64,000 nucleotides of DNA from a virus (IMGVR_UViG_3300045999_007505), one strand, 5' to 3'. Shown: positions 678-61,588, counted from the first letter of the stretch. Translations and numbers: made by a program. The notes: generated from the sequence alone by a model not told the origin.

Positions 678-679
678 GT

Positions 680-12823: not shown

Positions 12824-12832
12824 TATAAATAT
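12824..12832 (-). promoter_or_regulatory. Late-type motif ATATTTATA
   Basis: Recurrent motif upstream of a gene start. Confidence 0.65.
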
Positions 12833-38008: not shown

Positions 38009-38017
38009 TATAAATAT
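38009..38017 (-). promoter_or_regulatory. Late-type motif ATATTTATA
   Basis: Followed by AAAGGA SD. Confidence 0.7.
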
Positions 38018-38618: not shown

Positions 38619-38627
38619 TATAAATAT
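38619..38627 (-). promoter_or_regulatory. Late-type motif ATATTTATA
   Basis: Upstream of the tube gene. Confidence 0.7.
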
Positions 38628-38679: not shown

Positions 38680-41178
38680 CTACTGCGTAAATGTCGCACC
38701 CGTTGATTGAATATTGAAATCTAAAACAATAAATTCTGCAGTTCTGGTTGGTTGCAAAAATAATTGTCCGTATAAAATATTTCTATCAATTAAATCTGGT
38801 GTATTATTTGAAGCATCCATTACCACACGGAAAACTGACAATCCTTGTTGTGCTCTTACTTGTTCTAAATAAGGATTAACAATTGCCAAGAATCTGTCTC
38901 GTGTCTGCGATGTATTTTGTTCAAATACCAAATAACGAGTTGACGATGCAATAAATTTCTTGATTGTAATCAATAATCGACGTACATTTACTCGGTCTAA
39001 TGCACTTGGAAGAGATTGTAGTGTCTTTTGACCCCAAATTACTATACCTTCGTTAGGGAAGTTCGCAATAGGATTAACGCGAGCTTCATACAATGTATCT
39101 CGATCTGCTTGTGCTAAAGATTGATATGTATCAATTACAGAATTCAAACTACCACGATTCAAACCAGCTGGTGCATACCATGGAGCTGCAACTGCATCAT
39201 TGAATGCCAATGCGCCTGGAACAACAACTGAAGGTGGTACCCAAATTGGAACATTCTTGCTAGGATTAACAATTCGCACCCATGGCCAATATGTTGCAGT
39301 ATAATTATCATCAATATTTTGTACTTGCGATGTTACGGTTGATATTGAATCAGTTAATGCATTTGAATCCATTACATAGAATGTATCTTGACGAGTTGTA
39401 GCCAAATCTCTAGCTGCAGTTGTTACCGCAGAATGCAAACTATCAATAACACCTGGAGTAAGCAACATATTAACATCATAATAATCTGTATTGCTTAACA
39501 ATGTAAATGCTTTATTATATGCTTTCGTACCCGTACTTGTTGATGTCGAACAATCAAATCCAAATGTATTTGTAGAAGCAATATTGATTCCAGAATATTT
39601 AGGTAAATTTGGACGAGCTCCATCAAATCCACCTTGGAATGGCATAATGAATTTTCTAGTAGTTAAAGCAACATTAGTTGTAAATGTAGACCCCGTCAAT
39701 GCTGCCTGTAATGAACCACTATATGCAGCAGTTAATGAAGGAAATCCTGCTTGTCCGTCTTGACTTACATCACCTAAATAAAAATCTGAATTGCTACCAG
39801 TATTTGAACCTGATGTTGGAATTGGAGCTAAATAATTAATATTGTTTTGTGCGGTAAAATCAAATCCTAAATAATTTCTTGAACTATATTCAGATGCAAC
39901 AACTTGCGATGTTTTATATGTTGCTGCAGATAAATTCAATGTACCAGATACCATCGGTATTGGTGAATTAACAGCACGGAATCCAAACGGTATCAATGTT
40001 TTATCGATAGTCGAATTTGAAACTGCCTGATCTACTTCAACTCGAATATATTGTGAATTGTTTGGATAATCGCCATTTACAAAAAGTTGTCCATTATCAT
40101 TTACTGTTTGATAACGATCTCCAATTATTCTTGCAATATATCTAGATGAATTTGGATTCAAATTGACATTAGTAAATGTTTCTACAACATCAGGAACTTT
40201 GTCTGTATCTTGAGATGAATATGGAGAATTTGGAATACCTGGTGTAGGTGATAATGAATTTACTCTACGAATTTCTACCGTAAAGGCTCCGTATCCTGCA
40301 GGATCGCCTGTTTCAGTTGATAATCTAACATCTCGGATACCAATCTTTGTTTCATAGTTTACCGATGTGCCATGTGACAATGTATGAAACTTAAATAAAT
40401 TTTTAGTAAGCGAACCAATTTTTTGTGATGTTACCCACGGTGTTGATGCTACATTGTAATCTTGTAAAAATTCATAATTTGAAATTTTTTCTAATGACAT
40501 CGTAACATTAGCTAAGTTTGCAAACAATGACGATGCAGCAAGATTTTCATATTGCACATATACTGGATAATCTGTTGATTTAGGAGATGTTCCAAATACT
40601 TTTGAAATATAATTGTTTGCTGTAGATACAATTGATGCTGATATTGGGGTTGTTTCACTTACTAAGAATGAACCACCAAATCCAATTGCATTTGCGTCAT
40701 TTCCAGTTGCTACTGCATATGAACCAGAAACTGTAATTGCAAATGACCCTGAAGTACTAGATGCTATTACTGAATCTTCAAATACATTAGTTGCACCCGT
40801 TGTAGTTACTGCTTGAACTGGATGTAATATGTGTGTTACAACTTTTGTTGAACCTGATTGTGCAACAACTGCCAATCCACCATTGGTTAATTTATACCCA
40901 TCTTCATACAATAAACGTGTTACGGTAATTACGTTACCATTACGTAAATAATCTTGAACTACATATGGAACGTATGAATCATCTGTAAATGATCCAAATT
41001 GTGCCGTAAACTGTCCAAATGATGTAATTTGTGTAGGAACTAAAGCAGGCCCTTTGGTTGTTGGTCCTACAATTGCTGCTCCTATTTGCGCAATAGCTCC
41101 GGGTAAAAACGATTGATCAATTTCATTCGTAAATACACCAGGAGAAACTATTCCAGCGCCTATTTGTCTTTCTGCCAT
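38680..41178 (-). CDS. Contractile tail sheath (gp18-like)
   Basis: SPGVFTNEID, YWPW, PWYAPAGLNRG, WGQKTL, DRVNVRRL, FEQN, PTRTAEFI. Confidence 0.95.
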   Translation of the reverse strand: MAERQIGAGIVSPGVFTNEIDQSFLPGAIAQIGAAIVGPTTKGPALVPTQITSFGQFTAQFGSFTDDSYVPYVVQDYLRNGNVITVTRLLYEDGYKLTNGGLAVVAQSGSTKVVTHILHPVQAVTTTGATNVFEDSVIASSTSGSFAITVSGSYAVATGNDANAIGFGGSFLVSETTPISASIVSTANNYISKVFGTSPKSTDYPVYVQYENLAASSLFANLANVTMSLEKISNYEFLQDYNVASTPWVTSQKIGSLTKNLFKFHTLSHGTSVNYETKIGIRDVRLSTETGDPAGYGAFTVEIRRVNSLSPTPGIPNSPYSSQDTDKVPDVVETFTNVNLNPNSSRYIARIIGDRYQTVNDNGQLFVNGDYPNNSQYIRVEVDQAVSNSTIDKTLIPFGFRAVNSPIPMVSGTLNLSAATYKTSQVVASEYSSRNYLGFDFTAQNNINYLAPIPTSGSNTGSNSDFYLGDVSQDGQAGFPSLTAAYSGSLQAALTGSTFTTNVALTTRKFIMPFQGGFDGARPNLPKYSGINIASTNTFGFDCSTSTSTGTKAYNKAFTLLSNTDYYDVNMLLTPGVIDSLHSAVTTAARDLATTRQDTFYVMDSNALTDSISTVTSQVQNIDDNYTATYWPWVRIVNPSKNVPIWVPPSVVVPGALAFNDAVAAPWYAPAGLNRGSLNSVIDTYQSLAQADRDTLYEARVNPIANFPNEGIVIWGQKTLQSLPSALDRVNVRRLLITIKKFIASSTRYLVFEQNTSQTRDRFLAIVNPYLEQVRAQQGLSVFRVVMDASNNTPDLIDRNILYGQLFLQPTRTAEFIVLDFNIQSTGATFTQ

Positions 41179-41198
41179 TTATACTCCTATGATTTTTT

Positions 41199-41207
41199 TA
41201 TAAATAT
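41199..41207 (-). promoter_or_regulatory. Late-type motif ATATTTATA
   Basis: Upstream of the sheath gene, with AGGAG SD. Confidence 0.7.
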
Positions 41208-41226
41208 GAATCCACGAACTCAAACC

Positions 41227-41496
41227 TTATGCGGTTGGAGTAAATGTTCCAGATTGAATATTGATTTCGCCTTCGCCATAACGTTCGCGCATTTTGTCTA
41301 ATAATTCTGATTCTTGTTTACGCAAATCATAAAATGCATTCATGCAACGAGCTTGTTCGTTTTGTAACATTTCTAATCGTTGTTGAGTTATGGTAATTTC
41401 AATTGCTAAGTTTCCTAATTCTAAAGCATTGCTATTATAGGAATTTCGCAATTCCATGATTTCATCTAAATGCTCTTTATCTAATTTTCGAGTCAT
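41227..41496 (-). CDS. Small coiled-coil protein (possible fibre chaperone)
   Basis: Heptads, C-terminal YGEGEINIQSGTF. Confidence 0.6.
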   Translation of the reverse strand: MTRKLDKEHLDEIMELRNSYNSNALELGNLAIEITITQQRLEMLQNEQARCMNAFYDLRKQESELLDKMRERYGEGEINIQSGTFTPTA

Positions 41497-41513
41497 AATA
41501 ACCTTTTCTTGAT

Positions 41514-41542
41514 ATTATAATGAAAATGTTTCAATTATCCAA
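41514..41542 (-). promoter_or_regulatory. Sigma70-like promoter TTGGAT-N17-TATAAT
   Basis: Exact motif upstream of the ORF starting at 41496. Confidence 0.65.
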
Positions 41543-41777
41543 GCATTTCAGTTTTAGACATATCAATCGTAATGGCACCTACTGACAGGATATCTCCTTC
41601 TATTGTAAAATCTTCCCGCGTTGTTATGGAGGTACCTCCAGGTACATTGGATAAGTCTACGTTCAATCCGTGACATGCATCATCGACATACACGTTAATG
41701 ATTAAATCAAATCCATCAACCGTGTCAATGGCAGTTATTCGTTTACCGAATATAAATTGTTTTAGTGTTAATTTCAT
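41535..41777 (-). CDS. Hypothetical protein
   Basis: 80-aa ORF with AGGA SD after the adhesin. Confidence 0.55.
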   Translation of the reverse strand: MKLTLKQFIFGKRITAIDTVDGFDLIINVYVDDACHGLNVDLSNVPGGTSITTREDFTIEGDILSVGAITIDMSKTEMLG

Positions 41778-41784
41778 ATGTTTC

Positions 41785-44133
41785 CTATGTTATTATGTTT
41801 AATATAGCATATGGCACTGTGTTAAATCCATTGCCAGTATCGTTAAATGTTATCGTGCCAGTATTGAACGTTGTATCTAAACTTCCCGATATGTTAAGTT
41901 TAGCTACATAATTAACTATTGAGCCACTGTATGTTGTAAAGTTACTTGCTATGTATGGTTTATTGTTTTTATCCAAACTAATGGCTCCTACAGATAGTGT
42001 GCCCCATCCACTTGGTCCATTGCCTACTACAAATGAATTATCTCGAGACCCGTTTGAGTTTATTTTAACTAAACGGTTAGCAGTTGATCCGGAATATGAA
42101 GTAAATATTCCTGCTACTAGTAACGAGTCATTGTTCAATAGCTTTAAAGTATAAACGGCGCCATTCTGAGTAGTGCCCGGACTAAAGGCTAAGTCTCTAG
42201 TGCCGTCAGTATTAATCTTAACAAGTCGATTAACCGAGGAGCCTGAATATGTAGTAAATGCTCCTCCAATTACGGGTTTGCCATCTGATTGAATGACTAC
42301 AGAATATACTTCGTTATTAAAGCCTGTTCCTACGTTAAACGTTGCATCGCGCGTGCCGTCGGTATTTATTCGTACTATTCTAGTTGTACTTGAACCGGAA
42401 TATGCTGTAAAATTGTTTCCAACTACAATAAACTTACCATCACTTTGCATAGCAATTGATAGTGGAGTTCCGCCAGTAAAACCGGTACCTACATTAAATG
42501 TAGTGTCGCGAGTACCATTAGTGTTTATTCGTACTATACCTGGACTGCTAGAACCACTGTATGTTGAAATATTTCCAACGGCAACTATTTTACCATCTGG
42601 TTGTATTTTAAAATCATATACGGCTCCATTAGGGCCCGCTCCTACGTTGAATGTTGTATCGAGAGTGCCGCTAACATTTAATCTTGCAAGTCTAGTAGCA
42701 TTGGATCCAGAATACGTTGTATAGTCTCCTCCAACTACAAGTTTTGCGTCGGATTGCGTAGCCATGCAATAAACCACGGTATTAAACCCAGCACCCATAT
42801 TAAATGTTGTATCAATTGAACCGGTATTATCTAATTTTATAATTCTATTATACGCGGGAGCATTGTATGTTGTGAAAGCGCCGCCTAAATATAATTTGCT
42901 TCCAGATACAAGTGTAGTCCAAACGCCGCTGTTAAATCCTCTAGTACTTTGGTTGTTAAATCCAATGCTCCCCGTGTTGAATGTTAAATCTATAGTGCCA
43001 CTTGGTGATGTTTTTACAAATCGATTAACCGTTGAACCGCTATATGTTGTAAAGTTGTTTCCAATATATACATTTCCTGCAGTATCTAAGGAAAGTCCGT
43101 TTATTGCATTGGCTGTAGTACTATTAAGTCCCGCTCCTACATTATAAGATGTATCTAGATTACCATTAGATAATATTCGAGCTAAGTTGGTTTGAACGCT
43201 GCCACTTACGGAATTGAAGAGGCCAACTATTAGTATTTTTTGATCAGGTTGCATTTTTACAGCATATACTGAGTTATTAATAGTTCCCGGATTAAAAGAA
43301 TTATCTAACGTGCCATTAGTGTTTAATCGCATTAAACGTGTCACAGTTGATCCGCTGTATTGTGTTGCACCGTGACCTATAACAATTTTACCGTCTGATT
43401 GAATATCAACCGCATATCCAACTCGCGTCGTTGCTGTAAATCCAGTACCATTGTTAAAAGTAGTATCTCTAGTACCATCGATGTTTATTCTCAATGAGCC
43501 AGTTCCAATAACTGAGCCTGAGTATGTAGTCATGCTGTTTCCAACAATAACGGCTTTATCATCACTTTGTATAGCAACAGCAAACCCGTTTTGATTTAGA
43601 CCAGTTCCTATATTGTATGTTGTATCATATGTGCCATTTGTATTAAGTCTAGCAATACGGTTTCTTGTTGATCCACTGTATGACGTAAATGCTCCAGTAA
43701 CGATCACTTTGCCATCAGATTGTAATTTTAAGTCGTATACTGTACTATTGAATCCGGTACCGACGTTAAATGTAGTGTCACGGGTACCATCGGTATTTAT
43801 TCTTATAATGTATTGGGACGAAGATCCTGAATATGCTGCAAAGCTGCCACCCATTATTATTTTACCGTCGGACTGTGTAACCATGCATAAAACGGAGTTA
43901 TTAGCTCCGGTACTACCCATGTTAAATGATGTGTCTACTGAACCAGATAAATCGGTACGTAAGATTCTAGAGTATAACGGTTGGTTGTAGGTTGTAAAGC
44001 CACCACCAACGTATAGATAATCTGGTAAGGTTGTGGTAATTGTTGTCCCCATGTAATTTACTATGTCATTAATGGAAACTCCATCAATGTATAATATTGA
44101 TCCAAAAGGAACGCCGCCTATACTTGTAACCAT
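41785..44133 (-). CDS. Delta-60-repeat beta-propeller protein, probable adhesin
   Basis: About 14 repeats of QSDGKI..GG.FT.YSGS...RIN.DGTRDTTFN.GTG. Confidence 0.8.
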   Translation of the reverse strand: MVTSIGGVPFGSILYIDGVSINDIVNYMGTTITTTLPDYLYVGGGFTTYNQPLYSRILRTDLSGSVDTSFNMGSTGANNSVLCMVTQSDGKIIMGGSFAAYSGSSSQYIIRINTDGTRDTTFNVGTGFNSTVYDLKLQSDGKVIVTGAFTSYSGSTRNRIARLNTNGTYDTTYNIGTGLNQNGFAVAIQSDDKAVIVGNSMTTYSGSVIGTGSLRINIDGTRDTTFNNGTGFTATTRVGYAVDIQSDGKIVIGHGATQYSGSTVTRLMRLNTNGTLDNSFNPGTINNSVYAVKMQPDQKILIVGLFNSVSGSVQTNLARILSNGNLDTSYNVGAGLNSTTANAINGLSLDTAGNVYIGNNFTTYSGSTVNRFVKTSPSGTIDLTFNTGSIGFNNQSTRGFNSGVWTTLVSGSKLYLGGAFTTYNAPAYNRIIKLDNTGSIDTTFNMGAGFNTVVYCMATQSDAKLVVGGDYTTYSGSNATRLARLNVSGTLDTTFNVGAGPNGAVYDFKIQPDGKIVAVGNISTYSGSSSPGIVRINTNGTRDTTFNVGTGFTGGTPLSIAMQSDGKFIVVGNNFTAYSGSSTTRIVRINTDGTRDATFNVGTGFNNEVYSVVIQSDGKPVIGGAFTTYSGSSVNRLVKINTDGTRDLAFSPGTTQNGAVYTLKLLNNDSLLVAGIFTSYSGSTANRLVKINSNGSRDNSFVVGNGPSGWGTLSVGAISLDKNNKPYIASNFTTYSGSIVNYVAKLNISGSLDTTFNTGTITFNDTGNGFNTVPYAILNIIT

Positions 44134-44143
44134 ATCTTACCTT

Positions 44144-47100
44144 TTATAATTCAATCCATTCATTAGATGGTCTAAATTTCATAATCCAATCTACACCACC
44201 ATTATATGAGGTATAACAATAGCCTAACAATCTAACATATCCAGTTGTTGGAATTGTTGTCGACATTAATGTACCGCCACCTTCTCGAATATAAACAGGA
44301 AGTCCATAGTTAGGCCCATTAACATTTGGATATCCGCCGCCGGATGAAACAACTATATCGCCTTCAATTAAAACAGAACCAGTTTGAGAAAATATATCAA
44401 TAGCCATTCCTAACATTTTGGTTGATGTATTTGTTGTTTGATCTACTTGATACCATTGACCATCTGTATTTAAATATACTAACTCATTGCTTGATACCGT
44501 AGCATCGAAGTACGAATCTCCTAAAAGTTGTCCGGCTTTAGAATTAAACCCATATAATGAATCTCTATTAGTAGTACTTATGCGTTGTGAGCCATATAAA
44601 TCTATATTATATATTCCTGTTTGACCATCCCAAGAAATTACAGGTTGACCGGTAGCAGAATTCAATGATCTATTTCCAAAATCTATACTAGAACTACCAG
44701 CATTTAAATCATATAAATTTCTTGAAAAATTTGCATCATCTACTTCAATTGCCTTAAATGGTCCAGTAAATCCTGTTCCTTCGCCTTGTACTTTAAATGA
44801 ACCACTTAATATAGTTGGTCCTTGATTTATTAAAGTCGAAGACCCGGTTATAAGCAAAGAACCTGTTACAACTAAACTGCCAGATACTGTAGCAGATCCT
44901 GTTATTGATACCCCCGATGTCCAATTCAATATTTCAGTTCCGTTACTGTCTTTCAATTGACGGTTTTGCCAATTTATAGAATCTTTATTAGCTGTATCGA
45001 TTGCTATGCGATTCTGCCAATCTATAGAATTTTTAGCATTTGTATCTCGTAGTATGCCAGTATTCCAATTAACCGTGTATGATGCTGGGCCGTTGTCTAT
45101 TTTAAGAAGACGACTACTCCAATCAATCGATTGCGAATCAACTGTATCATATGTTGAGCGCTGATCCCAACGCATTGTAACTACTGCCGAACTATCAATT
45201 AATCTACGTACTTCCCAATTGACGCTGTTTATAGCAGAACTATCATATAAATCTCTGTCATCAGCATTAATGCTTGAAGTTCCCATTACATCATTAATAA
45301 CTCTAGTAACTCCGCCGAAATCTAATGCAGTTACATCAGATATTCCATTGTAGGTTTGTAAATTAAACGAACCAGTTACTCCTAATGAACCTGTAATACG
45401 AGTAGTGCCAATAACATCTAAGTTTGCAGTTGGATTAATTGTTCCAATTCCAATATTACCACTCTTTCCTGATATAACACCCCCGCCACTTCCTAGTTTA
45501 ATAGAAGCTACTGTAGAATCTTGTTGTCCATATACGCCTAAATGATTTGATATATTTATATCCCATAGTTCAACATCATCACCCCCTCGAAGATACATTG
45601 CACCATTTGTATTAGGAGCAATAAATCCTGTTGTTGCAGTTAATGATCCAGTTATAACTGCATTTCCTGTATATGGAAAAACTGTTCCTCCGGAGGTTGA
45701 TACTGTTATGACATTTCCTCCGGAATCTACTGCTAAGTTAGCTGCTGCTGTTCCTGGAAAAGAAGAGGCTGCTGTATATCCTGGGAGTTGCATTTGGGTG
45801 GTATGTATATCCCATTGGGCTATTAACCCCGTACTTGTGGTATTATTTCCTTTTAGTATTCTAGCTTTATTTTGCCAGTTGTCCATAAATGAAGCAGACG
45901 TATAAGTACCCCCTGGTGCATTGAATCCTATTTGTCCGCCCTCATTACTAGTGTCGCGAGCTCCTAAAGTTAAAGTATTTTCAGACGGACCTAAACTTGA
46001 AGTTCCTATAGCAGCACTACCAGTTATTATTACGGTTTGATTAAGCGTATTAACATATGAAGCAGTTGAAGCAAATGAAGCACTTACTGCTTGTAGAACG
46101 TAACTAGCAGTTGCGGCATATGAAGCACTAGTAGCAGTAGCCGCATTTCCTGTTATTGAGGCACTAATAGCAGATGTATTAACCCATTTAGCTGTAGAAG
46201 AATCATATGCCAATGGTTGTCCCGCTGATGGTCCTGAAATACTTACGTCAGATAATCCGGCCAATGTTTGAGTTACACTTCCTCCGCCACCGCCACTTCC
46301 ACCAACGGTTCTAAATAATCCTCCGGGAATTATTTTATAAGAAGCTGCCGTTGTAAAATCTGCATTATTTCTTACTACTATAGCACCCAAATAAACAGCT
46401 TGTGCTGCAGTATTAGGAGCCTCAGTAAATGGTTCAATGTTTATATTAGCAATTGCATCTAATTCTGTTGTGTATGATGCATTACCATAATATACATAAA
46501 ATGCTTTAGTGACGCTGTTTGGGAAAAAATATACTCGCTGGATTGACCATTGTCTATTACTACCACCACCAGGAACTGATGTTAAAACTCCATTAAGTGA
46601 ATATCGAGTTGGATCTATTGCACCATATCCCGCTCCTGCATTTGTATCATATACCCACGATGATCCAGATTGGTAATAACGAAATATTTTAGATACGGTG
46701 GTACCTGAGTCTGTAATGTATGAAGGATTATTAGGATCTACTGTATAATTTCTACCGTCTGACCATGCTATTCCGCTACTAACTACTAAACTACCCGTTG
46801 ATGAACCACTCACTGCTAGTGTCATTCCGGATATTTTTAATGGGCCAAATGCTCTAATAAAATCTGAAGAACGTTGTTTCCAACCGTATGCCAATGATGC
46901 AAATGTTTGAGTTCCATTAATTGTAGCATGATTTTGATGCAATACTACACCAATTGGAATTAAAGTATTGTATTGACCGTCATTATATGGTTCGCCTTGT
47001 GCATATATAGTACCATTTGATTGAATTGCTACAAATTGTTGATCATATGATGCGCTAAATGGTGCTATACTAGCAGATACATTTGGCCAATTAACATATT

Positions 47101-47707
47101 CAATTGTTGGAAATGGATTTTCATTATATGATGCATTTAAATTTACAATGATACCGCTACCACTTGATATTTGATACATTGTAGATGATTGTGATGAAAT
47201 CAATCCGCCATTTAATAATCCAGTATATAAATTACCTTCTATCCAACGCAAACGAGTTACGTTGTTATATCCTAAACCATTTTGCGAAAAATATAAATCG
47301 TTTGTTGAGCCAGAAACATAAATATAAGATGCAGATATGCTTGTATCAATGTTTTTAACAACCGGTGCAAATTTAATTACACCATTAGTTTCCATATCTC
47401 CATATACTTTAATCGTAGGCGTTACTGGAGTTGTAGTCGAACCTGATATGATAATACTACCCGACAATGTTGTGTTACCTAATAGTGTATTTGTTCCAAT
47501 CTGTGTGGTAGAGCCGGTAATATTTAATGATCCGGTTTGAGAAAATACTCCCGTTAAAAATTTACTACCTGTATGATAAACACTACCTGTATGATTGGAA
47601 TCTCCTAGCTGATTTAAACTACCCGTTATTGTAACTCCATTAGTTACATTTAATGAATTTAATGAGGCATTAGAGCCAGATGTAATGACCTTTTTCCAAG
47701 ATGGCAT
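44144..47707 (-). CDS. Tail fibre/virion fibre protein
   Basis: G/S/T-rich mosaic, LSDV motif, TASYA repeats, NIGIGT, SI(D/N)W..R.L.D repeats. Confidence 0.75.
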   Translation of the reverse strand: MPSWKKVITSGSNASLNSLNVTNGVTITGSLNQLGDSNHTGSVYHTGSKFLTGVFSQTGSLNITGSTTQIGTNTLLGNTTLSGSIIISGSTTTPVTPTIKVYGDMETNGVIKFAPVVKNIDTSISASYIYVSGSTNDLYFSQNGLGYNNVTRLRWIEGNLYTGLLNGGLISSQSSTMYQISSGSGIIVNLNASYNENPFPTIEYVNWPNVSASIAPFSASYDQQFVAIQSNGTIYAQGEPYNDGQYNTLIPIGVVLHQNHATINGTQTFASLAYGWKQRSSDFIRAFGPLKISGMTLAVSGSSTGSLVVSSGIAWSDGRNYTVDPNNPSYITDSGTTVSKIFRYYQSGSSWVYDTNAGAGYGAIDPTRYSLNGVLTSVPGGGSNRQWSIQRVYFFPNSVTKAFYVYYGNASYTTELDAIANINIEPFTEAPNTAAQAVYLGAIVVRNNADFTTAASYKIIPGGLFRTVGGSGGGGGSVTQTLAGLSDVSISGPSAGQPLAYDSSTAKWVNTSAISASITGNAATATSASYAATASYVLQAVSASFASTASYVNTLNQTVIITGSAAIGTSSLGPSENTLTLGARDTSNEGGQIGFNAPGGTYTSASFMDNWQNKARILKGNNTTSTGLIAQWDIHTTQMQLPGYTAASSFPGTAAANLAVDSGGNVITVSTSGGTVFPYTGNAVITGSLTATTGFIAPNTNGAMYLRGGDDVELWDINISNHLGVYGQQDSTVASIKLGSGGGVISGKSGNIGIGTINPTANLDVIGTTRITGSLGVTGSFNLQTYNGISDVTALDFGGVTRVINDVMGTSSINADDRDLYDSSAINSVNWEVRRLIDSSAVVTMRWDQRSTYDTVDSQSIDWSSRLLKIDNGPASYTVNWNTGILRDTNAKNSIDWQNRIAIDTANKDSINWQNRQLKDSNGTEILNWTSGVSITGSATVSGSLVVTGSLLITGSSTLINQGPTILSGSFKVQGEGTGFTGPFKAIEVDDANFSRNLYDLNAGSSSIDFGNRSLNSATGQPVISWDGQTGIYNIDLYGSQRISTTNRDSLYGFNSKAGQLLGDSYFDATVSSNELVYLNTDGQWYQVDQTTNTSTKMLGMAIDIFSQTGSVLIEGDIVVSSGGGYPNVNGPNYGLPVYIREGGGTLMSTTIPTTGYVRLLGYCYTSYNGGVDWIMKFRPSNEWIEL

Positions 47708-47721
47708 ACTATTTTCCTTTT

Positions 47722-47785
47722 GTGTTGTGGTTGGTTACATACACTTATGCCGTGCGTGTGCCCACTTCCTTGCGGCCTACAACAT
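47722..47785 (-). ncRNA. Candidate structured 5' leader RNA
   Basis: GC-rich island between the late motif and the SD: GTTGTAGG/CCACAAC outer stem, CC-GCAA-GG hairpin, ACACGCAC/GTGTATGT stem. Confidence 0.5.
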
Positions 47786-47789
47786 TTAT

Positions 47790-47798
47790 AATAAATAT
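47790..47798 (-). promoter_or_regulatory. Late-type motif ATATTTATT
   Basis: Immediately upstream of the structured leader. Confidence 0.65.
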
Positions 47799-47974
47799 CA
47801 CTGTTTTAGATATTGGTCTTGTAATTTTAGAATGATATTGTAGAATGTCTCTACTTGGTCTCCGCGTACGGAAACATCTTTAAGGATCATCAATAAAAAT
47901 TCAATTTCTTGTTTTGTTAATTGTGATGCAGATTCTGGATTTGGTTGTGCTTTTAAACGATCAATTATGCTCAT
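47798..47974 (-). CDS. 58-aa helical protein (possible fibre chaperone), below the ORF-track cutoff
   Basis: MSIIDRLKAQPNPESASQLTKQEIEFLLMILKDVSVRGDQVETFYNIILKLQDQYLKQ fills the gap. Confidence 0.65.
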   Translation of the reverse strand: MSIIDRLKAQPNPESASQLTKQEIEFLLMILKDVSVRGDQVETFYNIILKLQDQYLKQ

Positions 47975-47989
47975 AACTTGTTTTTATTT

Positions 47990-48820
47990 TTATGCGTAAA
48001 TATATATATCTCCGGTATTTGTATCAACGTGAATTGTTCCGGAGCCATTACCCGATCCACCATATATTGGTGCTGCAGCTGGCGCTATGGCACTTGTTTC
48101 TACCGTTCCTACAAACACTGCAGGTGTAAATGAATTTCCGGTTGCAACGAATGAAGAAGTAAATCCCCAACGGGTTGTTCCGGAATCATATCCATATAAT
48201 TCACCGATATTTTGAGTGCCTTGTTGAACTACAATACCACCATCGCCAGTAGTATTAGACCCAGATGCAAACAATACAAATCGATCTGCAACAAGCAAGT
48301 TTTGTGTATTTTGAAATGATGCAGTACCTAATACAACTAAATTGCCTGTTAATGTTAATCCAACAAATTGAGGAGAGTCTGTAGTTTGTAGTCCTAAATC
48401 AATAGTTGAACCAGCTACACCATTCGTTGTTAAAAGAGCTTCACCTTGATTTGGTGATGATAATACTGAAGAAGATATTACCGTGCTACCCGCTAATATT
48501 TGTGCTTGCGTAACTGTTCCGCCTAATGATGTTGCATTACCGGCAATTGTTATGGAAGAATTAGTTAAACTTGCATTTGGAATTCCACCTAATGTAAATG
48601 TAATTGTATCAGAACCAGCGTTGCCTGCAATATTTAATCCTGCGCCAGACGAAGATGCAAATGTTAATGTATCTACTGCACTGTCTGCTACTATATTCGT
48701 GCCATTGATAGACATCGTAGCAAATGTATTTTGTGCTGTTATCGATGTTAAATAATTAGCATCATTATTTAATTGTGAAATATTACTACCTGATACTACT
48801 ACTTTTTTCCAAGTTGCCAT
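47990..48820 (-). CDS. Virion fibre/collar-like protein
   Basis: MATWKKVVVSGSN; LQTTDSPQF, NLLVADRFV, GDIYIY. Confidence 0.65.
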   Translation of the reverse strand: MATWKKVVVSGSNISQLNNDANYLTSITAQNTFATMSINGTNIVADSAVDTLTFASSSGAGLNIAGNAGSDTITFTLGGIPNASLTNSSITIAGNATSLGGTVTQAQILAGSTVISSSVLSSPNQGEALLTTNGVAGSTIDLGLQTTDSPQFVGLTLTGNLVVLGTASFQNTQNLLVADRFVLFASGSNTTGDGGIVVQQGTQNIGELYGYDSGTTRWGFTSSFVATGNSFTPAVFVGTVETSAIAPAAAPIYGGSGNGSGTIHVDTNTGDIYIYA

Positions 48821-48839
48821 GTTTTATGTTCCTATTTTA

Positions 48840-48848
48840 TATAAATAT
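48840..48848 (-). promoter_or_regulatory. Late-type motif ATATTTATA
   Basis: Upstream of the start at 48820, with AGGA SD. Confidence 0.7.
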
Positions 48849-48853
48849 ATGCA

Positions 48854-49192
48854 TCAATCTAAACCTACAAAAAAAGATCCGGATGTAAAATAAATTCCGC
48901 CATTTGGAGCCGTTCCTGTCAATTCAATACTTTGTGTTGCTACTACAACGACACCACTTTGTGATACTGTTAATATTGGTTGATTATTAAAATTTTTAAT
49001 TAAAAATATATTGTTTACATCACTTCTAATTTCTAATGAACCGGTGATTACTGCACTACCGGAGAATGGAAACGTATTTCCTCCACCGCCATTCATTGCA
49101 TATGATGCAGTTAATGCATAACTAGAAGATATATTAAATAAAGATCCGGTTTGTAATTGTCCAGGTCTAAACTGCCTTGCCATTATGCCCAT
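48854..49192 (-). CDS. Small virion structural protein
   Basis: SYALTASYA, FPFSGSAVITGSL shared with the fibre protein. Confidence 0.6.
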   Translation of the reverse strand: MGIMARQFRPGQLQTGSLFNISSSYALTASYAMNGGGGNTFPFSGSAVITGSLEIRSDVNNIFLIKNFNNQPILTVSQSGVVVVATQSIELTGTAPNGGIYFTSGSFFVGLD

Positions 49193-50406
49193 CTCCCTTT
49201 AACTACAATAACATCTTGTGCGTTTATAGTATATCCTAATGTTGCAGTATTGAATACAATTGTTTGTGTTGTAATATCACTCGGTGTCCAAGTATATACT
49301 ATTTTATCAATATACTGGCCATTGATAAATACATCAAATTCATTTTTACTTGCAACTGCAAAGGTAACCGGATTAACTGCTGCTAGTGCCGGAATAGTTA
49401 TCGTAGTTGCATTTGAATATGTTGCAATCTCTTCAGTTAATTCGGTTAGGTATGACATTACTAGTGCATTAATTGTTATAGCTCCAGATGGAGTATTAGC
49501 AACAACTTGTCCTCCAGAAAATATATTGGCTTGTTGTTGTAATATTGCAGTTGGTAATGCAATTGATTCAAATATATTTTGTTCAACGTCGACTACTATA
49601 TCAAATGTAACTCGTTTTACGGAATACATTTTCTTCAATGTTGATAGTCTAGCTTCTTGACCGGAAAGCAAAGTTGCTTGCACCGTTAATGGCAATGTTG
49701 CACGAACTAAACGATCTTCGCCAACGGTATTTACAGTTTCAAATGTTATCGATCCAATTGTTGTTGCAAATTTATTTGATTCATTTCCCCAAGCAAATCG
49801 GCTGTATGTAAATATTTGATCGACTAATTCGTTAAGTTGTGTAGTAAAATCACACCAAATCATCATTTCATATTCAACAGTTACATATTTTGGAATATCA
49901 ACAATCATTACTTGTTGTGATGATTGTGGTTGTTGAAGTGGTATTGGAAATAATTCATCTTCATAACGATTTTTTTCGTTATATCTTTGTCGATAAACAA
50001 TTTGATTTCCAGCCTGTGGCCAATTGACATCCAATGTTTTAAATGAATCGCGTTCTGCTACCGAACTTCGTTTTAACATAATTAATGGCGATTGTAACAT
50101 GCCTTTTTCATCACGTAAATAACCTAAACGCTGTACATTGTCCCATTTTTCGCCATTCGCATAAATTACTGGCACTGGTATGATGGTTTGTTGTGCTTTA
50201 ATCTGTGGTTGAATTTCATTTTCAACATACCATTTAATGGCATAATCTACATCGTATAATGTTCTTTTTGGCGAACGAATTACGTCATCATCTCGTCTCG
50301 TTTGCATGGACCGATCTAAAACGCGATCGCCGCGCATACTTTCTACAATATCCAAGCTTGGTTTGTTTGTTTTGCGGTCAATATTTTTTCTATTCAGTCT
50401 AGGCAT
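49183..50406 (-). CDS. Tail terminator/sheath stabiliser (gp15-like) with C-terminal extension
   Basis: VPVIYANGEKW, PLIMLKR, P.YVTVEY; follows the neck genes. Confidence 0.6.
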   Translation of the reverse strand: MPRLNRKNIDRKTNKPSLDIVESMRGDRVLDRSMQTRRDDDVIRSPKRTLYDVDYAIKWYVENEIQPQIKAQQTIIPVPVIYANGEKWDNVQRLGYLRDEKGMLQSPLIMLKRSSVAERDSFKTLDVNWPQAGNQIVYRQRYNEKNRYEDELFPIPLQQPQSSQQVMIVDIPKYVTVEYEMMIWCDFTTQLNELVDQIFTYSRFAWGNESNKFATTIGSITFETVNTVGEDRLVRATLPLTVQATLLSGQEARLSTLKKMYSVKRVTFDIVVDVEQNIFESIALPTAILQQQANIFSGGQVVANTPSGAITINALVMSYLTELTEEIATYSNATTITIPALAAVNPVTFAVASKNEFDVFINGQYIDKIVYTWTPSDITTQTIVFNTATLGYTINAQDVIVVKGRWA

Positions 50407-50930
50407 TAGATTCCTTTCCTAAATGCAGGAGATTGATTACTACCCCCCCGACGTATATCGGTAATATTTTGTGGCGTTTGACGAGTTGTATGTGCATCAC
50501 ATAACACTGAAACGCTATATCCATATGTATTTCCATTTGGCCATGTATCTGGATTCTTGCCTACAAAATATTGATTTGATTCTACATTATCAATTTCATA
50601 GTATTCATTATCCCAAAATATAATATCGCCAGCCTCAGGATACAATGTAACAGTTTCTAACAAATCGCGAGACAATGCAAATTGTGCTGTTCTAGTATAT
50701 GAATGTCCATAATCATCCATTGTTGCTGTTTTATTTTCTTTGGTTATAATGCAAGGCATTAAAATAGAATTGTAAAAACTTTTTTGTTCAGATTCACCAT
50801 AAATATTTGAATCGCTTTGTTCTACAATTAATTTGTAATAAAGAATTTCAGTATCAATGATTGCATTAATCAATTCTGAATTAATTGCTGCTAAAAATTT
50901 TGCATCTCGTTGACTGCCAAAAAGTGCCAT
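50406..50930 (-). CDS. Head closure/neck protein (gp14-like)
   Basis: NIYGES, PEAGDIIFW...YYEI. Confidence 0.65.
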   Translation of the reverse strand: MALFGSQRDAKFLAAINSELINAIIDTEILYYKLIVEQSDSNIYGESEQKSFYNSILMPCIITKENKTATMDDYGHSYTRTAQFALSRDLLETVTLYPEAGDIIFWDNEYYEIDNVESNQYFVGKNPDTWPNGNTYGYSVSVLCDAHTTRQTPQNITDIRRGGSNQSPAFRKGI

Positions 50931-50941
50931 GTAATTCCCCC

Positions 50942-52168
50942 TTATCCAACATAAATTTTTAATGGAACTTTTGCTAGCATCTCATGCATTTGAGTTGCTT
51001 CGGTATTTTGACGAGTCATCATGTTTTCTTTAGTTAATTTATCTAAAAACTCTCGCAATTGCGTTATAAGCGTTTCTTTTTCAGATTGACCTTGTGATGT
51101 TAAATCACCTCCATTAAGTGTTACTTCACCATTTGGAATAGGAACACTACTGTATTTACCCCGTACAAATCCTAACATTTCTTTTGATAACGCTGTGGCA
51201 TATTTAAAAATCCACGCACGCCCCATATCATTAATGTTACTGTATGTTTGATATGTATATGGTATATTTGATGCGTCACTTACAACATCGTTTAAAAGTG
51301 CTGTATTGCCGAATAATACGCTTTGATTGTCTTTATCTTCTGTAACTATAAAATCTACATATACATTTTTAAAGTATGGAGTTGCTGAGCTTGATCCGGA
51401 TGGCGCAACTGGAACTGGCCAGAACTTAATATCATCTCCGTGTAGCTCAAATGAATAGCTAGATTTTCTTACAGTATCATTAAATTCAATTGCTTGTAAT
51501 CTAAATAAATCTGCATTAATTGGCATCATCATAAATGATACAGATGGAGAAAATCCTCCAAAATCAAATGAATCTAACAATTGTTGTGAACCTAAACCAG
51601 TTCCAACAAACGGGTCAAAGTATCTTACAATGGCAGGTGGTGGATTATGAAGTACTCGTTTTACTTCAATTGACCCCGATGATAATACTAATCCTAAAGA
51701 TTTTGATATTGCAGTTATTAAATTATATGTTTGTTGTCCTGGCTCAACATCAATTCTTGCAGTTTTCCAAGATAATGTTCCTCCAGAATCTGCTTCAGTA
51801 CCATATGCTTTTGAAAGCTTAGTTATATACCCAAATGAATTTCCAACCAATGCGCCGGTAAAACTTTCATCTGTTAAAAATGCAGATTCTGTTTTTATAC
51901 CTAAAGTGTTAACTAAATTATTAACAATATTAACTTGATTAACTTGATTTGAATATTCAACAATTGCTGCTTCAAATGCCGTATAAAAATTAATATCTTG
52001 CAATTCCACATCCATGATTGGATATCCCAATGTTTGGGCAGCTAATCTTGCAAATTTGTCAGCATGTTGTTGAAACACAGCATCATTATCAAAAAATCCA
52101 AAAGGAGTATCACCGGGCTGAAATGAACTAGACCCGGGCCATATTGGTTTTTGAACGCTGTAATCCAT
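50942..52168 (-). CDS. Head-tail adaptor/neck protein (gp13-like)
   Basis: LGYPIMDVEL, WIFKYATALSKEMLG..RGKY..VP.P...VTLNG. Confidence 0.8.
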   Translation of the reverse strand: MDYSVQKPIWPGSSSFQPGDTPFGFFDNDAVFQQHADKFARLAAQTLGYPIMDVELQDINFYTAFEAAIVEYSNQVNQVNIVNNLVNTLGIKTESAFLTDESFTGALVGNSFGYITKLSKAYGTEADSGGTLSWKTARIDVEPGQQTYNLITAISKSLGLVLSSGSIEVKRVLHNPPPAIVRYFDPFVGTGLGSQQLLDSFDFGGFSPSVSFMMMPINADLFRLQAIEFNDTVRKSSYSFELHGDDIKFWPVPVAPSGSSSATPYFKNVYVDFIVTEDKDNQSVLFGNTALLNDVVSDASNIPYTYQTYSNINDMGRAWIFKYATALSKEMLGFVRGKYSSVPIPNGEVTLNGGDLTSQGQSEKETLITQLREFLDKLTKENMMTRQNTEATQMHEMLAKVPLKIYVG

Positions 52169-52183
52169 TATGCTCCTTTTTTA

Positions 52184-52192
52184 TATAAATAT
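52184..52192 (-). promoter_or_regulatory. Late-type motif ATATTTATA
   Basis: Upstream of the neck operon, with AGGAG SD. Confidence 0.7.
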
Positions 52193-52857
52193 CAATACGT
52201 TTCATTTAGAAGTTTTAAAATTTCATTTAATGATTCATGACGATGATTATCCAATAAAATAATTTCATTAACATATTGTGATTTCGTTAATTTAGGTACT
52301 TCATGCACTGCCGAATCATTTGCAAACTTTAAATCTATTTGATATCTATCACCTGTGAGTATCATAATACTATCTTTACCTAATCTAGAAACAACCATTT
52401 GTAGTTGTTGTTTAGTTAAGTTTTGAAATTCGTCTACAATACAAACTGCATGATCGAATGTACGTCCTCGGAAGTGTGCTAATGAAACTAATTCAATATT
52501 TTCTTCCTTTTCCATTTTGTCTAATATTTCCGGTTTATTATAAACCTTACGCATATTGCTACGTAATGGAACTAACCATGGATCCATTTTTTCTGCTAAA
52601 GACCCAGGAAGAAATCCATTATCTTCGTTTGACACTGTAGGACGTGTTATGATAATTTTATTAATTTGTCGTTTAAAAAACATATCCAATGCAACTTGAA
52701 CTGCTAACAATGTTTTACCAGATCCGGCTTTGCCTAATATAAAATTAAATGGGGTTTCTATAATTTTTGCTTTTGCTTGTTTTTGCTCTTCTGATAATGT
52801 TATTGAAAATTTAATATCAGTTTTAGGTGGAGTTTTTTCCCGATTTTGAGTAGCCAT
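52192..52857 (-). CDS. phoH: PhoH-family ATPase
   Basis: GKAGSGKT, ITRP, GFLPG...EK, RGRTF, DEFQN, SRLG, GD..QID. Confidence 0.92.
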   Translation of the reverse strand: MATQNREKTPPKTDIKFSITLSEEQKQAKAKIIETPFNFILGKAGSGKTLLAVQVALDMFFKRQINKIIITRPTVSNEDNGFLPGSLAEKMDPWLVPLRSNMRKVYNKPEILDKMEKEENIELVSLAHFRGRTFDHAVCIVDEFQNLTKQQLQMVVSRLGKDSIMILTGDRYQIDLKFANDSAVHEVPKLTKSQYVNEIILLDNHRHESLNEILKLLNETY

Positions 52858-52872
52858 AACTAACCTTTTTAA

Positions 52873-53148
52873 TTAAAATAATTTTGTAAGCGTTGATTGT
52901 TGCAATGTCATATCTTTCAATGTTTCAATTTTACCTAAACACATTTTTCGTATAGCAAAAAATGTTTCTTTCGGCGGATATGGAGTCATAACTTTTATTT
53001 TAATTAATTCTTTATCTGGCCCTAAGTCTCGTTCTATATGTACCATTAAAACTAATCGTATAGCTCGAATCCGATCTAATACATCAATAAGACGACCTGC
53101 ATATCGTATTTCTGCAAACATTTCGTATTTGTGTCTTTCTACTGCCAT
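52873..53148 (-). CDS. Hypothetical protein
   Basis: 91-aa ORF after a late motif. Confidence 0.6.
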   Translation of the reverse strand: MAVERHKYEMFAEIRYAGRLIDVLDRIRAIRLVLMVHIERDLGPDKELIKIKVMTPYPPKETFFAIRKMCLGKIETLKDMTLQQSTLTKLF

Positions 53149-53161
53149 ATTATCATTTTAA

Positions 53162-53170
53162 TATAAATAT
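53162..53170 (-). promoter_or_regulatory. Late-type motif ATATTTATA
   Basis: Directly after the capsid terminator. Confidence 0.7.
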
Positions 53171-53175
53171 ACAAC

Positions 53176-53206
53176 CAGTAAAAAAGGGTGACCGAAGCCA
53201 CCCTTT
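53176..53206 (-). terminator. Intrinsic terminator after the major capsid gene
   Basis: Sense AAAGGGTGGC-TTCG-GTCACCCTTT-TTTACTG. Confidence 0.85.
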
Positions 53207-53257
53207 CCTTTTTAATTAGTTAATTCGTTAAATATAAAAGCTAATCGAAGTTAACTA

Positions 53258-54928
53258 TTAAAGTGTGTTAAGACCGTGAACGTATACTTTTCCGTAGAAT
53301 TCAGGACGAACTACTTTCTTCGCGTAACGTGTCATAACACCTTTACGTGGAGTGAAGTTTACTGGATCATATACAAGCGGAGTCATAATCAACGGAATAT
53401 ATGGACTAAATACAGCACCTGTTTCAAGGAACTGCGAACCACGGAATCCCATAAGGATTACATTCTCTAACATGTATGGGTTTTTGTATACTGTATAACG
53501 GTTATTGATGCTACCAATTTTTTGAACACCAGCAGCAAATTCCATTTTGTTACCATCTGTCTCGGCAGCAAATCCTGGGATAGACTCAAGGATAGTTGCA
53601 ACTGCAGGAGATGTTACTAAGAAGTTAGCACCGCCACGTAATGTTTTTTGGTGAATCTTATTAGATACTTTTTGAAGTTTAGTACCTAAAGTTTGGAACC
53701 AACCACCTTGGGTGTTGTAATATCCATCACCAACCGCAGTAGCTGCACCAGCACCAGATTGAGTAAATCCTGTACCGTTCCAGAAGTTGTTATTTAATGC
53801 TGACCAATACTCAGTTGTTGGAGCTGCTGAAATCAACATATCAAGGATTTCAAGATCGATTTCCATTGATACATACTCAGACAACATTGAAGTTAATTCA
53901 GCTTCAGCATCAATTGAGTGATAAGCATTTAAATCTTGAGCAAATTCAGGAGTCCAAACTGCTTTCAATTTACGTGTTTTAGCAACGATTGGCTCAGATT
54001 GCATTTCAAGGTTGATTTCTGGGATATCAATATCCGTACCATTATCGATACCTGTATTAGCAGAAGATCCTTTAAATGGATTTTTATCTTCAAAATCACC
54101 ACGCGTAATATCGGTAGGTTGCTTGCTATAGTTCAAGCTAAAGTTAGATGCACTAATTGCAGTTTGAATTGCAGTAGCTTGAGCGGTTGTTACAACAAAT
54201 GATGCAGTGTAATTGCTAGCAATTGTTGAAAATGCTTGAACTGGAACAATTTCAGTACCAGCTGAACCAGAAGCAAATGTCCATGAACGTACTGCATATA
54301 AATCAGCATCAGTTGGAACATTAACGGTAACTACTTTATAGCTAGCTAACGCAGTAGTAAAATTACCATCATAATTTACAGATCCAGAACCAGGAGCAGA
54401 ACCAGTTGCTGCATTAGCACTTGATGCTACCGTAGTATAAGGAATTGAATATCCAAAACGACCTGCACCATAAAGACCGCCAGCTGCATCACTACCAGTT
54501 GTAGTAACACCGAACATTGAGTCTAATGCGTTAGGATTTCCAAATGGATCTCCGGTACGGTTTGAATTATCATCATCAAATCCAGGTACAGATGTACCAT
54601 ATTTGAAGTCAAGATAGAAAATAAGACCTGATGGCAAATTCATTGGTTGAACTGAAACGAATTCTTTAGCTGCAAATTCAGCAAAAATACGACGTACCAA
54701 TGGAAGTGCTACACCTGCCCACTCTTCTGAACCAGCTTGTGTACCTGTTCCAGATGATTCTTTTACTAATTGACGTGCTTGGTTTTCAAGCAATTGTGCC
54801 ATTCCGGCTCTTTCGGTCTCACCACGAAGACCTTCTAATAAACCTGTTCTTTCCCACTTTGCAGATAAAGCTTTTGCATTGTTTCTTTGAACAAAGTCGT
54901 TTGTTTGAAGTAAGTTTGAAATACTCAT
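53258..54928 (-). CDS. Major capsid protein (gp23-like)
   Basis: LLENQ, LPLVRR, VSVQPM..PSGLIFY, AKTRKLKA.WTPEFAQDL.A.H, PYIPL, MTRY. Confidence 0.97.
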   Translation of the reverse strand: MSISNLLQTNDFVQRNNAKALSAKWERTGLLEGLRGETERAGMAQLLENQARQLVKESSGTGTQAGSEEWAGVALPLVRRIFAEFAAKEFVSVQPMNLPSGLIFYLDFKYGTSVPGFDDDNSNRTGDPFGNPNALDSMFGVTTTGSDAAGGLYGAGRFGYSIPYTTVASSANAATGSAPGSGSVNYDGNFTTALASYKVVTVNVPTDADLYAVRSWTFASGSAGTEIVPVQAFSTIASNYTASFVVTTAQATAIQTAISASNFSLNYSKQPTDITRGDFEDKNPFKGSSANTGIDNGTDIDIPEINLEMQSEPIVAKTRKLKAVWTPEFAQDLNAYHSIDAEAELTSMLSEYVSMEIDLEILDMLISAAPTTEYWSALNNNFWNGTGFTQSGAGAATAVGDGYYNTQGGWFQTLGTKLQKVSNKIHQKTLRGGANFLVTSPAVATILESIPGFAAETDGNKMEFAAGVQKIGSINNRYTVYKNPYMLENVILMGFRGSQFLETGAVFSPYIPLIMTPLVYDPVNFTPRKGVMTRYAKKVVRPEFYGKVYVHGLNTL

Positions 54929-61579: not shown

Positions 61580-61588
61580 TATAAATAT
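61580..61588 (-). promoter_or_regulatory. Late-type motif ATATTTATA
   Basis: Upstream of the portal gene. Confidence 0.7.

Follow-up and report, generated by a model that had tools for sequence, protein, structure and literature searches.

Ser/Thr-Gly-Ser motifs on exposed virion proteins of a T4-like lake phage lineage as candidate O-glycosylation sites

A stretch of viral DNA 64,000 nucleotides long (IMGVR_UViG_3300045999_007505, analysed whole and called the window below) encodes seven virion proteins between positions 38680 and 54928 that share one short motif, (S/T)-(G/A)-S. The seven are a tail sheath, a delta-60 beta-propeller, a neck protein, a Gp23-type major capsid protein, and fibre-like proteins of 1187, 276 and 112 amino acids (aa). 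Together they hold 60 copies of [ST]GS where 10.3 are expected, a number reached in none of 500 whole-protein shuffles. At its other end the window holds a cluster of sugar genes that includes two glycosyltransferases (GTs) of the GT4 type. We propose that the turn-presented serines of the motif on exposed virion proteins are O-glycosylation sites, a reading to which we give a probability of roughly 0.45, and which suggests virions that are sugar-coated at defined sites.

The carriers are rich in serine, threonine and glycine, and the propeller and the long fibre are internally repetitive, so that a statistical artefact of composition or of internal repeats had to be weighed. Shuffling was done per protein (500 times) and also within local blocks of 15, 25 and 40 aa (1000 times). 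Under the block shuffles the [ST]GS expectation was still about 11 (10.9-11.5), and none reached the observed count. In the non-repetitive set of sheath, capsid and neck proteins, 13 copies stand against about 2.6 expected (2.5-2.8; 0 of 1000 shuffles). The tripeptide [ST]GT is flat in the same seven proteins (11 against 10.7 expected, 11-12 under block shuffles), and the [ST]GS excess recurs in about 70 sheath and about 60 capsid homologues. An artefact of this kind is scarcely credible and was rejected. A sequence-only reading of the window, which had first described the motif as saturating unrelated virion proteins, had named a loss of the excess after composition correction as one of the findings that would count against it; the excess survives both kinds of shuffle.

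The motif has a direction. TGS occurs 23 times and SGT 7 times, SGS 37 times and TGT 4 times, in proteins that contain 441 serines and 446 threonines. After [ST]-G, serine is enriched 4.4-fold and threonine 0.8-fold, and SGS and TGS are the most over-represented tripeptides among those with non-trivial counts. The other 57 open reading frames (ORFs) of the window hold 2 [ST]GS against 7.4 expected. Motif 9-mers and codons are diverse in the carriers; selection therefore acts at the protein level and not on a DNA word, which rules out a codon or DNA-level effect. The carriers share no homologous segments except one 17-residue match between fibres. The related form [ST]AS is weaker in the window (14 against 7.0 expected, chiefly from the long fibre), but it is placed in one motif class with [ST]GS because it swaps with [ST]GS at sheath columns and dominates the fibre of a relative.

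Within the carriers, the motifs lie in particular regions. The sheath has seven [ST]GS against 1.2 expected (QSGS108, TSGS143, VSGS151, TSGS456, NTGS460, YSGS487 and LTGS495), with SAS at 180, and all of them are N-terminal to the conserved sheath core (560-823). By likeness to T4 gp18, the region that carries them would be the outer part of the sheath. The AlphaFold model of the sheath has a predicted local distance difference test score (pLDDT) of 47.5, and below 50 in the motif regions; motif exposure was therefore judged by domain position only. In the capsid protein the motifs are at 144, 175, 181, 220, 241 and 259 (among them TTGS144, ATGS175, GSGS181 and ASGS220), all within residues 114-289. 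Only two parts of this protein, 64-113 and 290-536, align to T4 gp23*; the segment 114-289 between them stands at the place of the T4 surface insertion domain and is about 76 residues longer. The propeller holds 18 [ST]GS against 2.5 expected, with YSGS at 11 repeat positions and VSGS in the 12th repeat. The tetrapeptides that the sequence-only reading had listed for sheath, capsid, neck and propeller were all found in the translations, including its 11 copies of YSGS at one repeat position. Its claim for the smaller fibre-like proteins stood in part: the 112-aa protein is enriched, and the 276-aa protein is not enriched in the window (counts in Table 1).

The window comes from a T4-like myophage. 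Every real gene is on the minus strand; the structural module occupies 38-63 kb (terminase, portal, prohead proteins, Gp23-type capsid, neck, fibre-like proteins, delta-60 propeller, sheath, tube and hub) and the replication genes 5-30 kb. By capsid identity, the nearest cultured relatives are Flavobacterium phage vB_FspM_immuto (57%; immuto below), Microcystis phage Mel-JY01 (54%) and Rhodothermus phage RM378 (37%). The lineage consists of lake-water phages and is very abundant in IMG/VR.

A survey of this clade covered 1,770 ORFs from about 160 related loci, and in it [ST]GS is in excess only in the seven families that were found in the window. Family means are 6.2 against 1.0 expected for the sheath, 15.6 against 2.6 for the propeller, 2.4 against 0.5 for the neck, 2.7 against 0.6 for the capsid, 4.4 against 1.2 for the 276-aa protein and 3.8 against 0.7 for the 112-aa protein. 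For [ST]AS, the means are 3.3 against 0.6 in the 112-aa protein and 1.5 against 0.4 in the neck. Over the same loci the tube, portal, hub, prohead proteins, terminase and enzymes hold [ST]GS at or below expectation, and the tail tube has 0 against 0.1 expected in 71 homologues. A complete relative of 159.6 kb, G001, contains 95 [ST]GS against 32.8 expected, concentrated in 15 ORFs; the additional carriers include fibre-type proteins with ConA-like lectin and Ig-like domains. Its remaining ORFs, about 177, hold 13 against 17.3. Four control myophages have no excess: T6 (2 against 7.5), cyanophage S-RIM2 (10 against 9.0), PaBG (5 against 6.0) and Rhizobium phage P9VFCI (11 against 7.1). The S-RIM2 set includes a 1750-aa fibre and an insertion-bearing sheath, and the four controls rule out that sheath, fibre or capsid proteins carry the excess in general. 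Convergence of the motif in non-homologous, outward-facing virion proteins is thus supported.

Conservation was examined in the sheath and the capsid. Among 69 sheath homologues the mean is 6.4 [ST]GS against 1.0 expected. In an alignment of 70 sheaths (57-99% identity), the motif columns are kept as S-[G/A/S/C]-S, with the two hydroxyls preserved around a small middle residue. Retention in the sheath insertion is 0.88 for motif Ser/Thr and 0.63 for its other Ser/Thr (p=3e-4), and about 13 of the 31 conserved serine columns of the whole sheath are in the motif. Several of these columns use both serine codon families. Codon-family switching was considered as a motif-specific signal and set aside, since it also occurs at other conserved serine columns and so indicates constraint and not its cause. 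In 60 capsid homologues the mean is 2.7 against 0.65, spread over 17 alignment columns; the count is held while the positions turn over, and conservation of motif residues in the capsid insertion is not significantly above that of other Ser/Thr (p=0.25).

The propeller allows a comparison with cellular relatives. Phage-type propellers carry YSGS at 456 of 476 repeat sites. Cellular delta-60 proteins of Flavobacterium, of the type IX secretion system (T9SS) type, have Y-N-G-[T/V/I/A] at the same position and YSGS at 0 of 109, which confirms by homologue comparison the YNG that the sequence-only reading had given for cellular repeats. Their [ST]GS count is 0.9 against 2.0 expected. Avoidance of Asn-Gly deamidation was rejected as the cause of the change from YNG to YSGS, as the carriers hold 38 NG against 35 expected and 22 DG against 21. 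The solved relatives of the propeller are designed 'Cake' proteins and are uninformative here. A class of delta-60 proteins of about 1150 aa carries YSGS at 469 of 702 repeat sites, and since one member is encoded on the phage genome G006 (a complete 174-kb relative), these large propellers are taken as a second phage form of the host-derived domain.

The sugar cluster at 1-4025, to which the sequence-only reading had pointed, proved to contain real glycosyltransferase and sugar genes. Both GT4-type proteins match the PHROG 2170 family 'glycosyltransferase' (E 1e-16 to 1e-18), and their Pfam Glycos_transf_1 scores (25.3 bits for the 498-aa GT, 26.2 bits for the 412-aa GT) are just below the gathering cut-off of 26.4. 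The catalytic E-x7-E is invariant in both, at E333 and E341 of the 498-aa GT (16 sequences) and at E278 and E286 of the 412-aa GT (6 sequences). The model of the 498-aa GT (pLDDT 79.6, predicted TM-score 0.83) has the two Rossmann domains of a GT-B fold, and Foldseek matched it with probability 1.00 to GlgM, B736L, MshA and PimB'. A fold this generic says 'active GT4' and nothing about the acceptor. The G001 homologue of the smaller enzyme at 680..1306 is also a GT2. Within the window the heptapeptide L-P-K-L-x-K-I occurs only at the N-terminus of the 498-aa GT (4005-4025) and the C-terminus of the 412-aa GT (1303-1335), and it recurs at these two termini in G001; possibly the two enzymes dock or pair through it.

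The cluster runs on past the edge of the window and can be followed in G001, at 23.6-36.4 kb (L176:3584-16377), where it spans about 13 kb with about 8 GT-type genes and ends beside an amidase/holin lysis cassette. It contains GT2s, two epimerase/dehydratases, a 2-hydroxyacid dehydrogenase, a CMP-type cytidylyltransferase, NeuB and a TOD1-like GT; on these gene assignments it is read as a phage-encoded pathway of the nonulosonic-acid type without membrane proteins. The immuto cluster is syntenic with it and in addition encodes aminotransferases, a methyltransferase and an acetyltransferase-like protein. No transmembrane (TM) segments were found in the 14 G001 cluster ORFs or in the cluster ORFs of the window, and the TM ORFs next to the cluster are those of the lysis cassette; one ORF suspected to be a 4-TM GtrA-like protein turned out to be holin-like, beside the amidase. 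No initiating transferase, flippase or polymerase was found in the cluster, though host enzymes could still supply such steps. A soluble pathway of about 13 kb that lacks these components points to a cytoplasmic acceptor, and a role in lipid-linked surface polysaccharide of the O-antigen or capsule type was set aside for want of membrane components in the cluster. DNA is another conceivable target. The DNA of immuto contains fdPreQ1 plus canonical dA, dC and dT, and no sugar-bearing base is reported in it (PMC10516641), which argues against DNA as the target of the cluster and weakens that explanation.

The sugar operon also shares a regulatory-looking sequence with the structural genes. The octamer TATTTATA precedes the start codons of the hub, tube, sheath, fibre-like, neck and portal genes by 21-31 nucleotides (nt), usually with an A-rich stretch 3' of it, and one copy stands before the GT operon. 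In G001 there are 42 copies on the coding strand and 4 on the other, again with one at -28 before the GT operon. Judged by the genes it precedes, TATTTATA is probably the late promoter of the lineage. It is the reverse complement of T4's TATAAATA. The coordinates of all features are given in Table 1.

Table 1. Features of the window discussed in the text, by position in the 64,000-nucleotide stretch.
Feature	Position	Strand	Evidence or remark
Nucleotide-sugar 4,6-dehydratase/epimerase (Polysacc_synt_2), cut by the window edge	3..677	-	Pfam PF02719, E 9e-51
GT2-type (GT-A) glycosyltransferase, 208 aa	680..1306	-	Pfam PF00535, 24.3 bits (cut-off 23.3)
Second GT4-type glycosyltransferase, 412 aa	1303..2541	-	Pfam PF00534, PHROG 2170; 13-nt overlap with the first
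GT4-type glycosyltransferase, 498 aa, first gene of the sugar operon, candidate writer	2529..4025	-	Pfam PF00534, PHROG 2170
TATTTATA element, 28 nt upstream of the GT operon start codon	4046..4053	-	Flanks near-identical to those of the structural-gene copies
Further TATTTATA copies	12824-12831, 38009-38016, 38619-38626, 41199-41206, 48840-48847	-	
Further TATTTATA copies	52184-52191, 53162-53169, 61580-61587	-	
Tail sheath, 832 aa, large insertion	38680..41178	-	Pfam PF04984/PF17482, PHROG 23
Delta-60 (DUF5122) beta-propeller, 12 repeats	41785..44133	-	Pfam PF17164, 12 stretches, E 3e-131
Long fibre-like protein, 1187 aa	44144..47707	-	23 [ST]GS against 4.0 expected; 9 [ST]AS against 2.4
Fibre-like protein, 276 aa	47990..48820	-	2 [ST]GS + 1 [ST]AS against 1.9 expected; not enriched in the window
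Small fibre-like protein, 112 aa	48854..49192	-	4 [ST]GS against 0.39 expected (0/2000 shuffles)
Neck/head-tail adaptor-like protein, 408 aa	50942..52168	-	PHROG 211; SSGS164, PSGS257
Gp23-type major capsid protein, 556 aa	53258..54928	-	Pfam PF07068

The load of the motif was compared with the presence of the GT pair across relatives, as the sequence-only reading had suggested. The pair is present in all five long relatives at 47-84% identity (47-82% for the 412-aa GT). Of about 50,000 phage records, those of immuto, Mel-JY01, LR756508 and RM378 were the only ones to contain it, apart from a weak match in S-EIVl; the 498-aa GT has more than 8,000 environmental homologues. The load is high in the window clade and in the relatives G005 and G006, in which an intact GT pair has an identity of 47-50% or more. 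In G006 (GT 49%) the sheath paralogues have 6 against 0.6 and 5 against 0.8 expected, the capsid 3 against 0.9 and the propeller 23 against 4.6. The load of immuto (GT 50%) is partly high, with 7 against 1.3 in the sheath and 12 against 1.3 in a 373-aa protein. It is low in Mel-JY01, with 4 against 0.9 in the sheath and none in fibres and capsid, and there the GT homologue is split by a frameshift in the deposited sequence. The head region of LR756508 (GT 34%) has no excess (9 against 7.7), nor does LR756511, which has no GT (4 against 3.5); the sheath of RM378, whose GT homologue is likewise remote, has none either. Motif-rich phages occurred only where the GT pair is intact and close, and the load is low in LR756511 and the four controls, which lack it. 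The gradient of motif load along GT status fits the glycosylation hypothesis.

Two details of these genomes may be added. In Mel-JY01 the GT is split between two frames where its two Rossmann domains meet (PP395634.1 83441-84932; L185:11974-13465), so that the gene is either truly disrupted or wrongly sequenced. The two G006 sheath paralogues are in tandem at 63.5-67.1 kb, are about 575-590 aa long with shorter insertions, and are both motif-enriched (L192:643-2412, L191:697-2415).

Put together, the proposed mechanism, which accounts most economically for the observations, would run as follows. The hydroxyls of (S/T)-(G/A)-S, presented on beta-turns or short strands of the capsid, neck, sheath, propeller and fibres, would be acceptors for O-glycosylation, which soluble GTs encoded by the phage would carry out late in infection in the cytoplasm of the host. 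The GT4 pair at 1303-4025 would have the task of starting or building the glycan. Its supply and extension would be the work of GT2-type enzymes and the nucleotide-sugar pathway, which in the relatives includes a nonulosonic-acid branch (NeuB and the CMP-transferase). The outcome would be a glycan coat on the virion. That protein is the acceptor, that the motif serines are the sites and that the GTs recognise a turn is what we infer, on circumstantial grounds, from the pattern as a whole; by analogy with Aah and TibC, recognition would probably be structural and not by a strict linear sequon. In a wider form, which we put forward tentatively as quite possible, T4-like freshwater phages of Bacteroidota run their own cytoplasmic O-glycosylation with hydrophobic-(S/T)-(G/A)-S on surface turns as the minimal acceptor; a complex glycan, possibly containing nonulosonic acid, would coat the capsid, neck, sheath, propeller and fibres, and the host delta-60 domain would have been captured and then re-coded from YNG to YSGS as a glycan acceptor.

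Several observations weigh against O-glycosylation, and some of them favour another explanation, that Ser-Gly-Ser is the lineage's preferred unmodified polar beta-turn or hairpin, including the turn of a hexapeptide repeat, and that the GT cluster serves another purpose, with a target such as host envelope glycans or some soluble acceptor. We consider this rather unlikely. At sheath column 151, Mel-JY01 has D-G-D where others have S-G-S, and cellular propellers have N-G-T, or more broadly N-G-[TVI], at the equivalent position; this marks a polar beta-turn position. In the long fibre, 22 of the 32 motifs are in runs with a period of 6 residues (I-T-G-S-L-x, S-A-S-Y), with spacings of 6, 12 and 18. 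[ST]GT is mildly enriched in the fibres of immuto and S-RIM2, so that turns of the [ST]-G-[ST] kind are nothing unusual in fibres. The sheath model, which is of low confidence, predicts that SGS108-110 joins strands 101-108 and 111-120. Mel-JY01 retains some of its sheath sites with a broken GT. The immuto capsid has no excess (1 against 0.6) despite a full cluster, nor has the RM378 sheath (1 against 0.6) despite a GT homologue (28%). Because all motif-rich phages belong to one lineage, the co-occurrence of motif and GT pair is statistically one evolutionary event. The depletion in other proteins is weak, in the window as in G001, and there is no clear avoidance of the motif in non-structural proteins. 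The fold of the 498-aa GT has no specific likeness to known protein O-GTs, and a literature search for virion glycan data on this lineage (mass spectrometry, glycan staining) found none.

An unmodified turn nevertheless leaves several facts unexplained. It does not account for serine at both flanks in unrelated folds of this lineage only (capsid insertion, sheath paralogues, neck, propeller, and lectin and Ig fibres) or for the exclusion of threonine at +2. Alanine, serine and cysteine, which are poor formers of type I' turns, are tolerated in the middle while the hydroxyls are kept. Internal beta-rich virion proteins and the control phages lack the motif, and N-G, as the counts above indicate, is not avoided overall. 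A cluster of about 13 kb, with the promoter-like element of the structural genes and without membrane steps, would have no target on this view. What is peculiar to the lineage is that serine is insisted on at both flanks of the turn. The sequon-directed glycan coat of the sequence-only reading stands in part: the convergent enrichment and the GT cluster are real, while other lineages have D-G-D or N-G-T at the equivalent places.

The evidence for selection concerns a pair of hydroxyls, two residues from each other, on exposed proteins, and leaves the chemistry unspecified. It would also suit some other modification or interaction: the serines might be phosphorylated, acylated or cross-linked, or might bind a decoration or assembly factor. 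The GT cluster follows the motif in a way that no candidate enzyme for these alternatives does, and nothing near the carriers in the window suggests acyl- or cross-linking enzymes. We regard this explanation as improbable.

The fibre-like proteins show further patterns. At residues of about 125-218 and 515-548 of the long fibre, a repeat of S-A-S-[Y/F] or T-A-S-Y alternates with runs of the T-G-S hexapeptide, and ASY occurs 11 times in this protein against about 1.2 expected. A 1432-aa fibre of G006 has 62 [ST]AS against 9 expected. The long fibre and the 276-aa protein have a common N-terminal segment, W-K-K-V-x-x-S-G-S-N-x-S-x-L-N, which is likely to be a common attachment module.

O-glycosylation of the virion can be set beside known systems. 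To our knowledge, virion glycosylation of tailed phages has been demonstrated so far essentially in mycobacteriophages. Their glycans are reported at the C-termini of capsid and tail-tube subunits (Freeman et al. 2023, as cited in PMC12619734). The system proposed here would be alike in its phage-encoded GTs, its capsid and tail glycans, its place in the cytoplasm and its lack of membrane steps. It differs in that the candidate sites are in capsid 114-289, in sheath 108-495, in the neck and in the fibres, with none in the tube; in that a recurrent short motif is implied; in a much larger sugar cluster; and in a host of Bacteroidota type and not of Actinomycetota. What is new relative to mycobacteriophages would be the sites and the proteins that carry them, a motif that can be recognised, and the far greater size of the sugar pathway. 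We know of no simple acceptor motif for any cytoplasmic bacterial or phage O-glycosylation system.

Chloroviruses likewise use virus-encoded cytoplasmic glycosylation of a major capsid protein, as is proposed here, although the glycans of chlorovirus Vp54 are N-linked at atypical sites. Chlorovirus B736L (PDB 3oy2) is the best PDB sequence match of the 498-aa GT (E 7e-10, identity about 19%) and second by fold (TM-score 0.73 on the target); the acceptor of B736L itself is not established. Aah and TibC, which act on AIDA-I, TibA and Ag43, are alike in the cytoplasmic O-glycosylation of many Ser/Thr on beta-repeat surface proteins. In this heptosylation of autotransporters, recognition of the acceptor is structural (PMC3835316). 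Unlike the phage enzymes they are not of the GT4 family, and they add a single heptose to cellular adhesins.

Flagellin glycosylation by Maf or FlmG is a further parallel, with O-linked sugars of the pseudaminic or legionaminic type added in the cytoplasm to exposed Ser/Thr of a polymerising protein, and NeuB and a CMP-transferase are among the genes of the phage relatives. The sites in flagellin are not known to follow a strict sequon. No Maf- or FlmG-type transferase was recognised in the sugar cluster. GtfA and GtfB of serine-rich-repeat adhesins resemble the phage genes as an adjacent GT4-like pair with S-x-S-x acceptor repeats and small intervening residues, but GtfB is non-catalytic whereas both phage GT4s keep the invariant E-x7-E. 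On this sequence feature a GtfA/GtfB-type pair was ruled out; Pfam found no DUF1975-type insertion in the phage GT4s, and GtfA is not among the Foldseek matches listed. Bacteroidota, the presumed host phylum, have a general O-glycosylation system with a short sequon, D-(S/T)-(A/I/L/V/M/T). It is alike in this respect and unlike in that it is periplasmic, acts on secreted proteins and uses another motif, while virions assemble in the cytoplasm.

The hypothesis is directly testable, because the cultured phage immuto has the GT cluster together with motif-rich sheath and fibre proteins. If the motif is purely structural, an unusual lineage-wide turn preference remains, and the large sugar cluster still needs a target. 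If the serines are modified, glycan-coated virions would be common in nature, given the number of environmental homologues of the 498-aa GT, glycosylation sites would be predictable from sequence, and the propeller would show plainly how a host domain was captured and then re-coded into a substrate. Such a glycan coat would bear on the stability and stickiness of virions, on their grazing and decay in lakes, and on receptor recognition.

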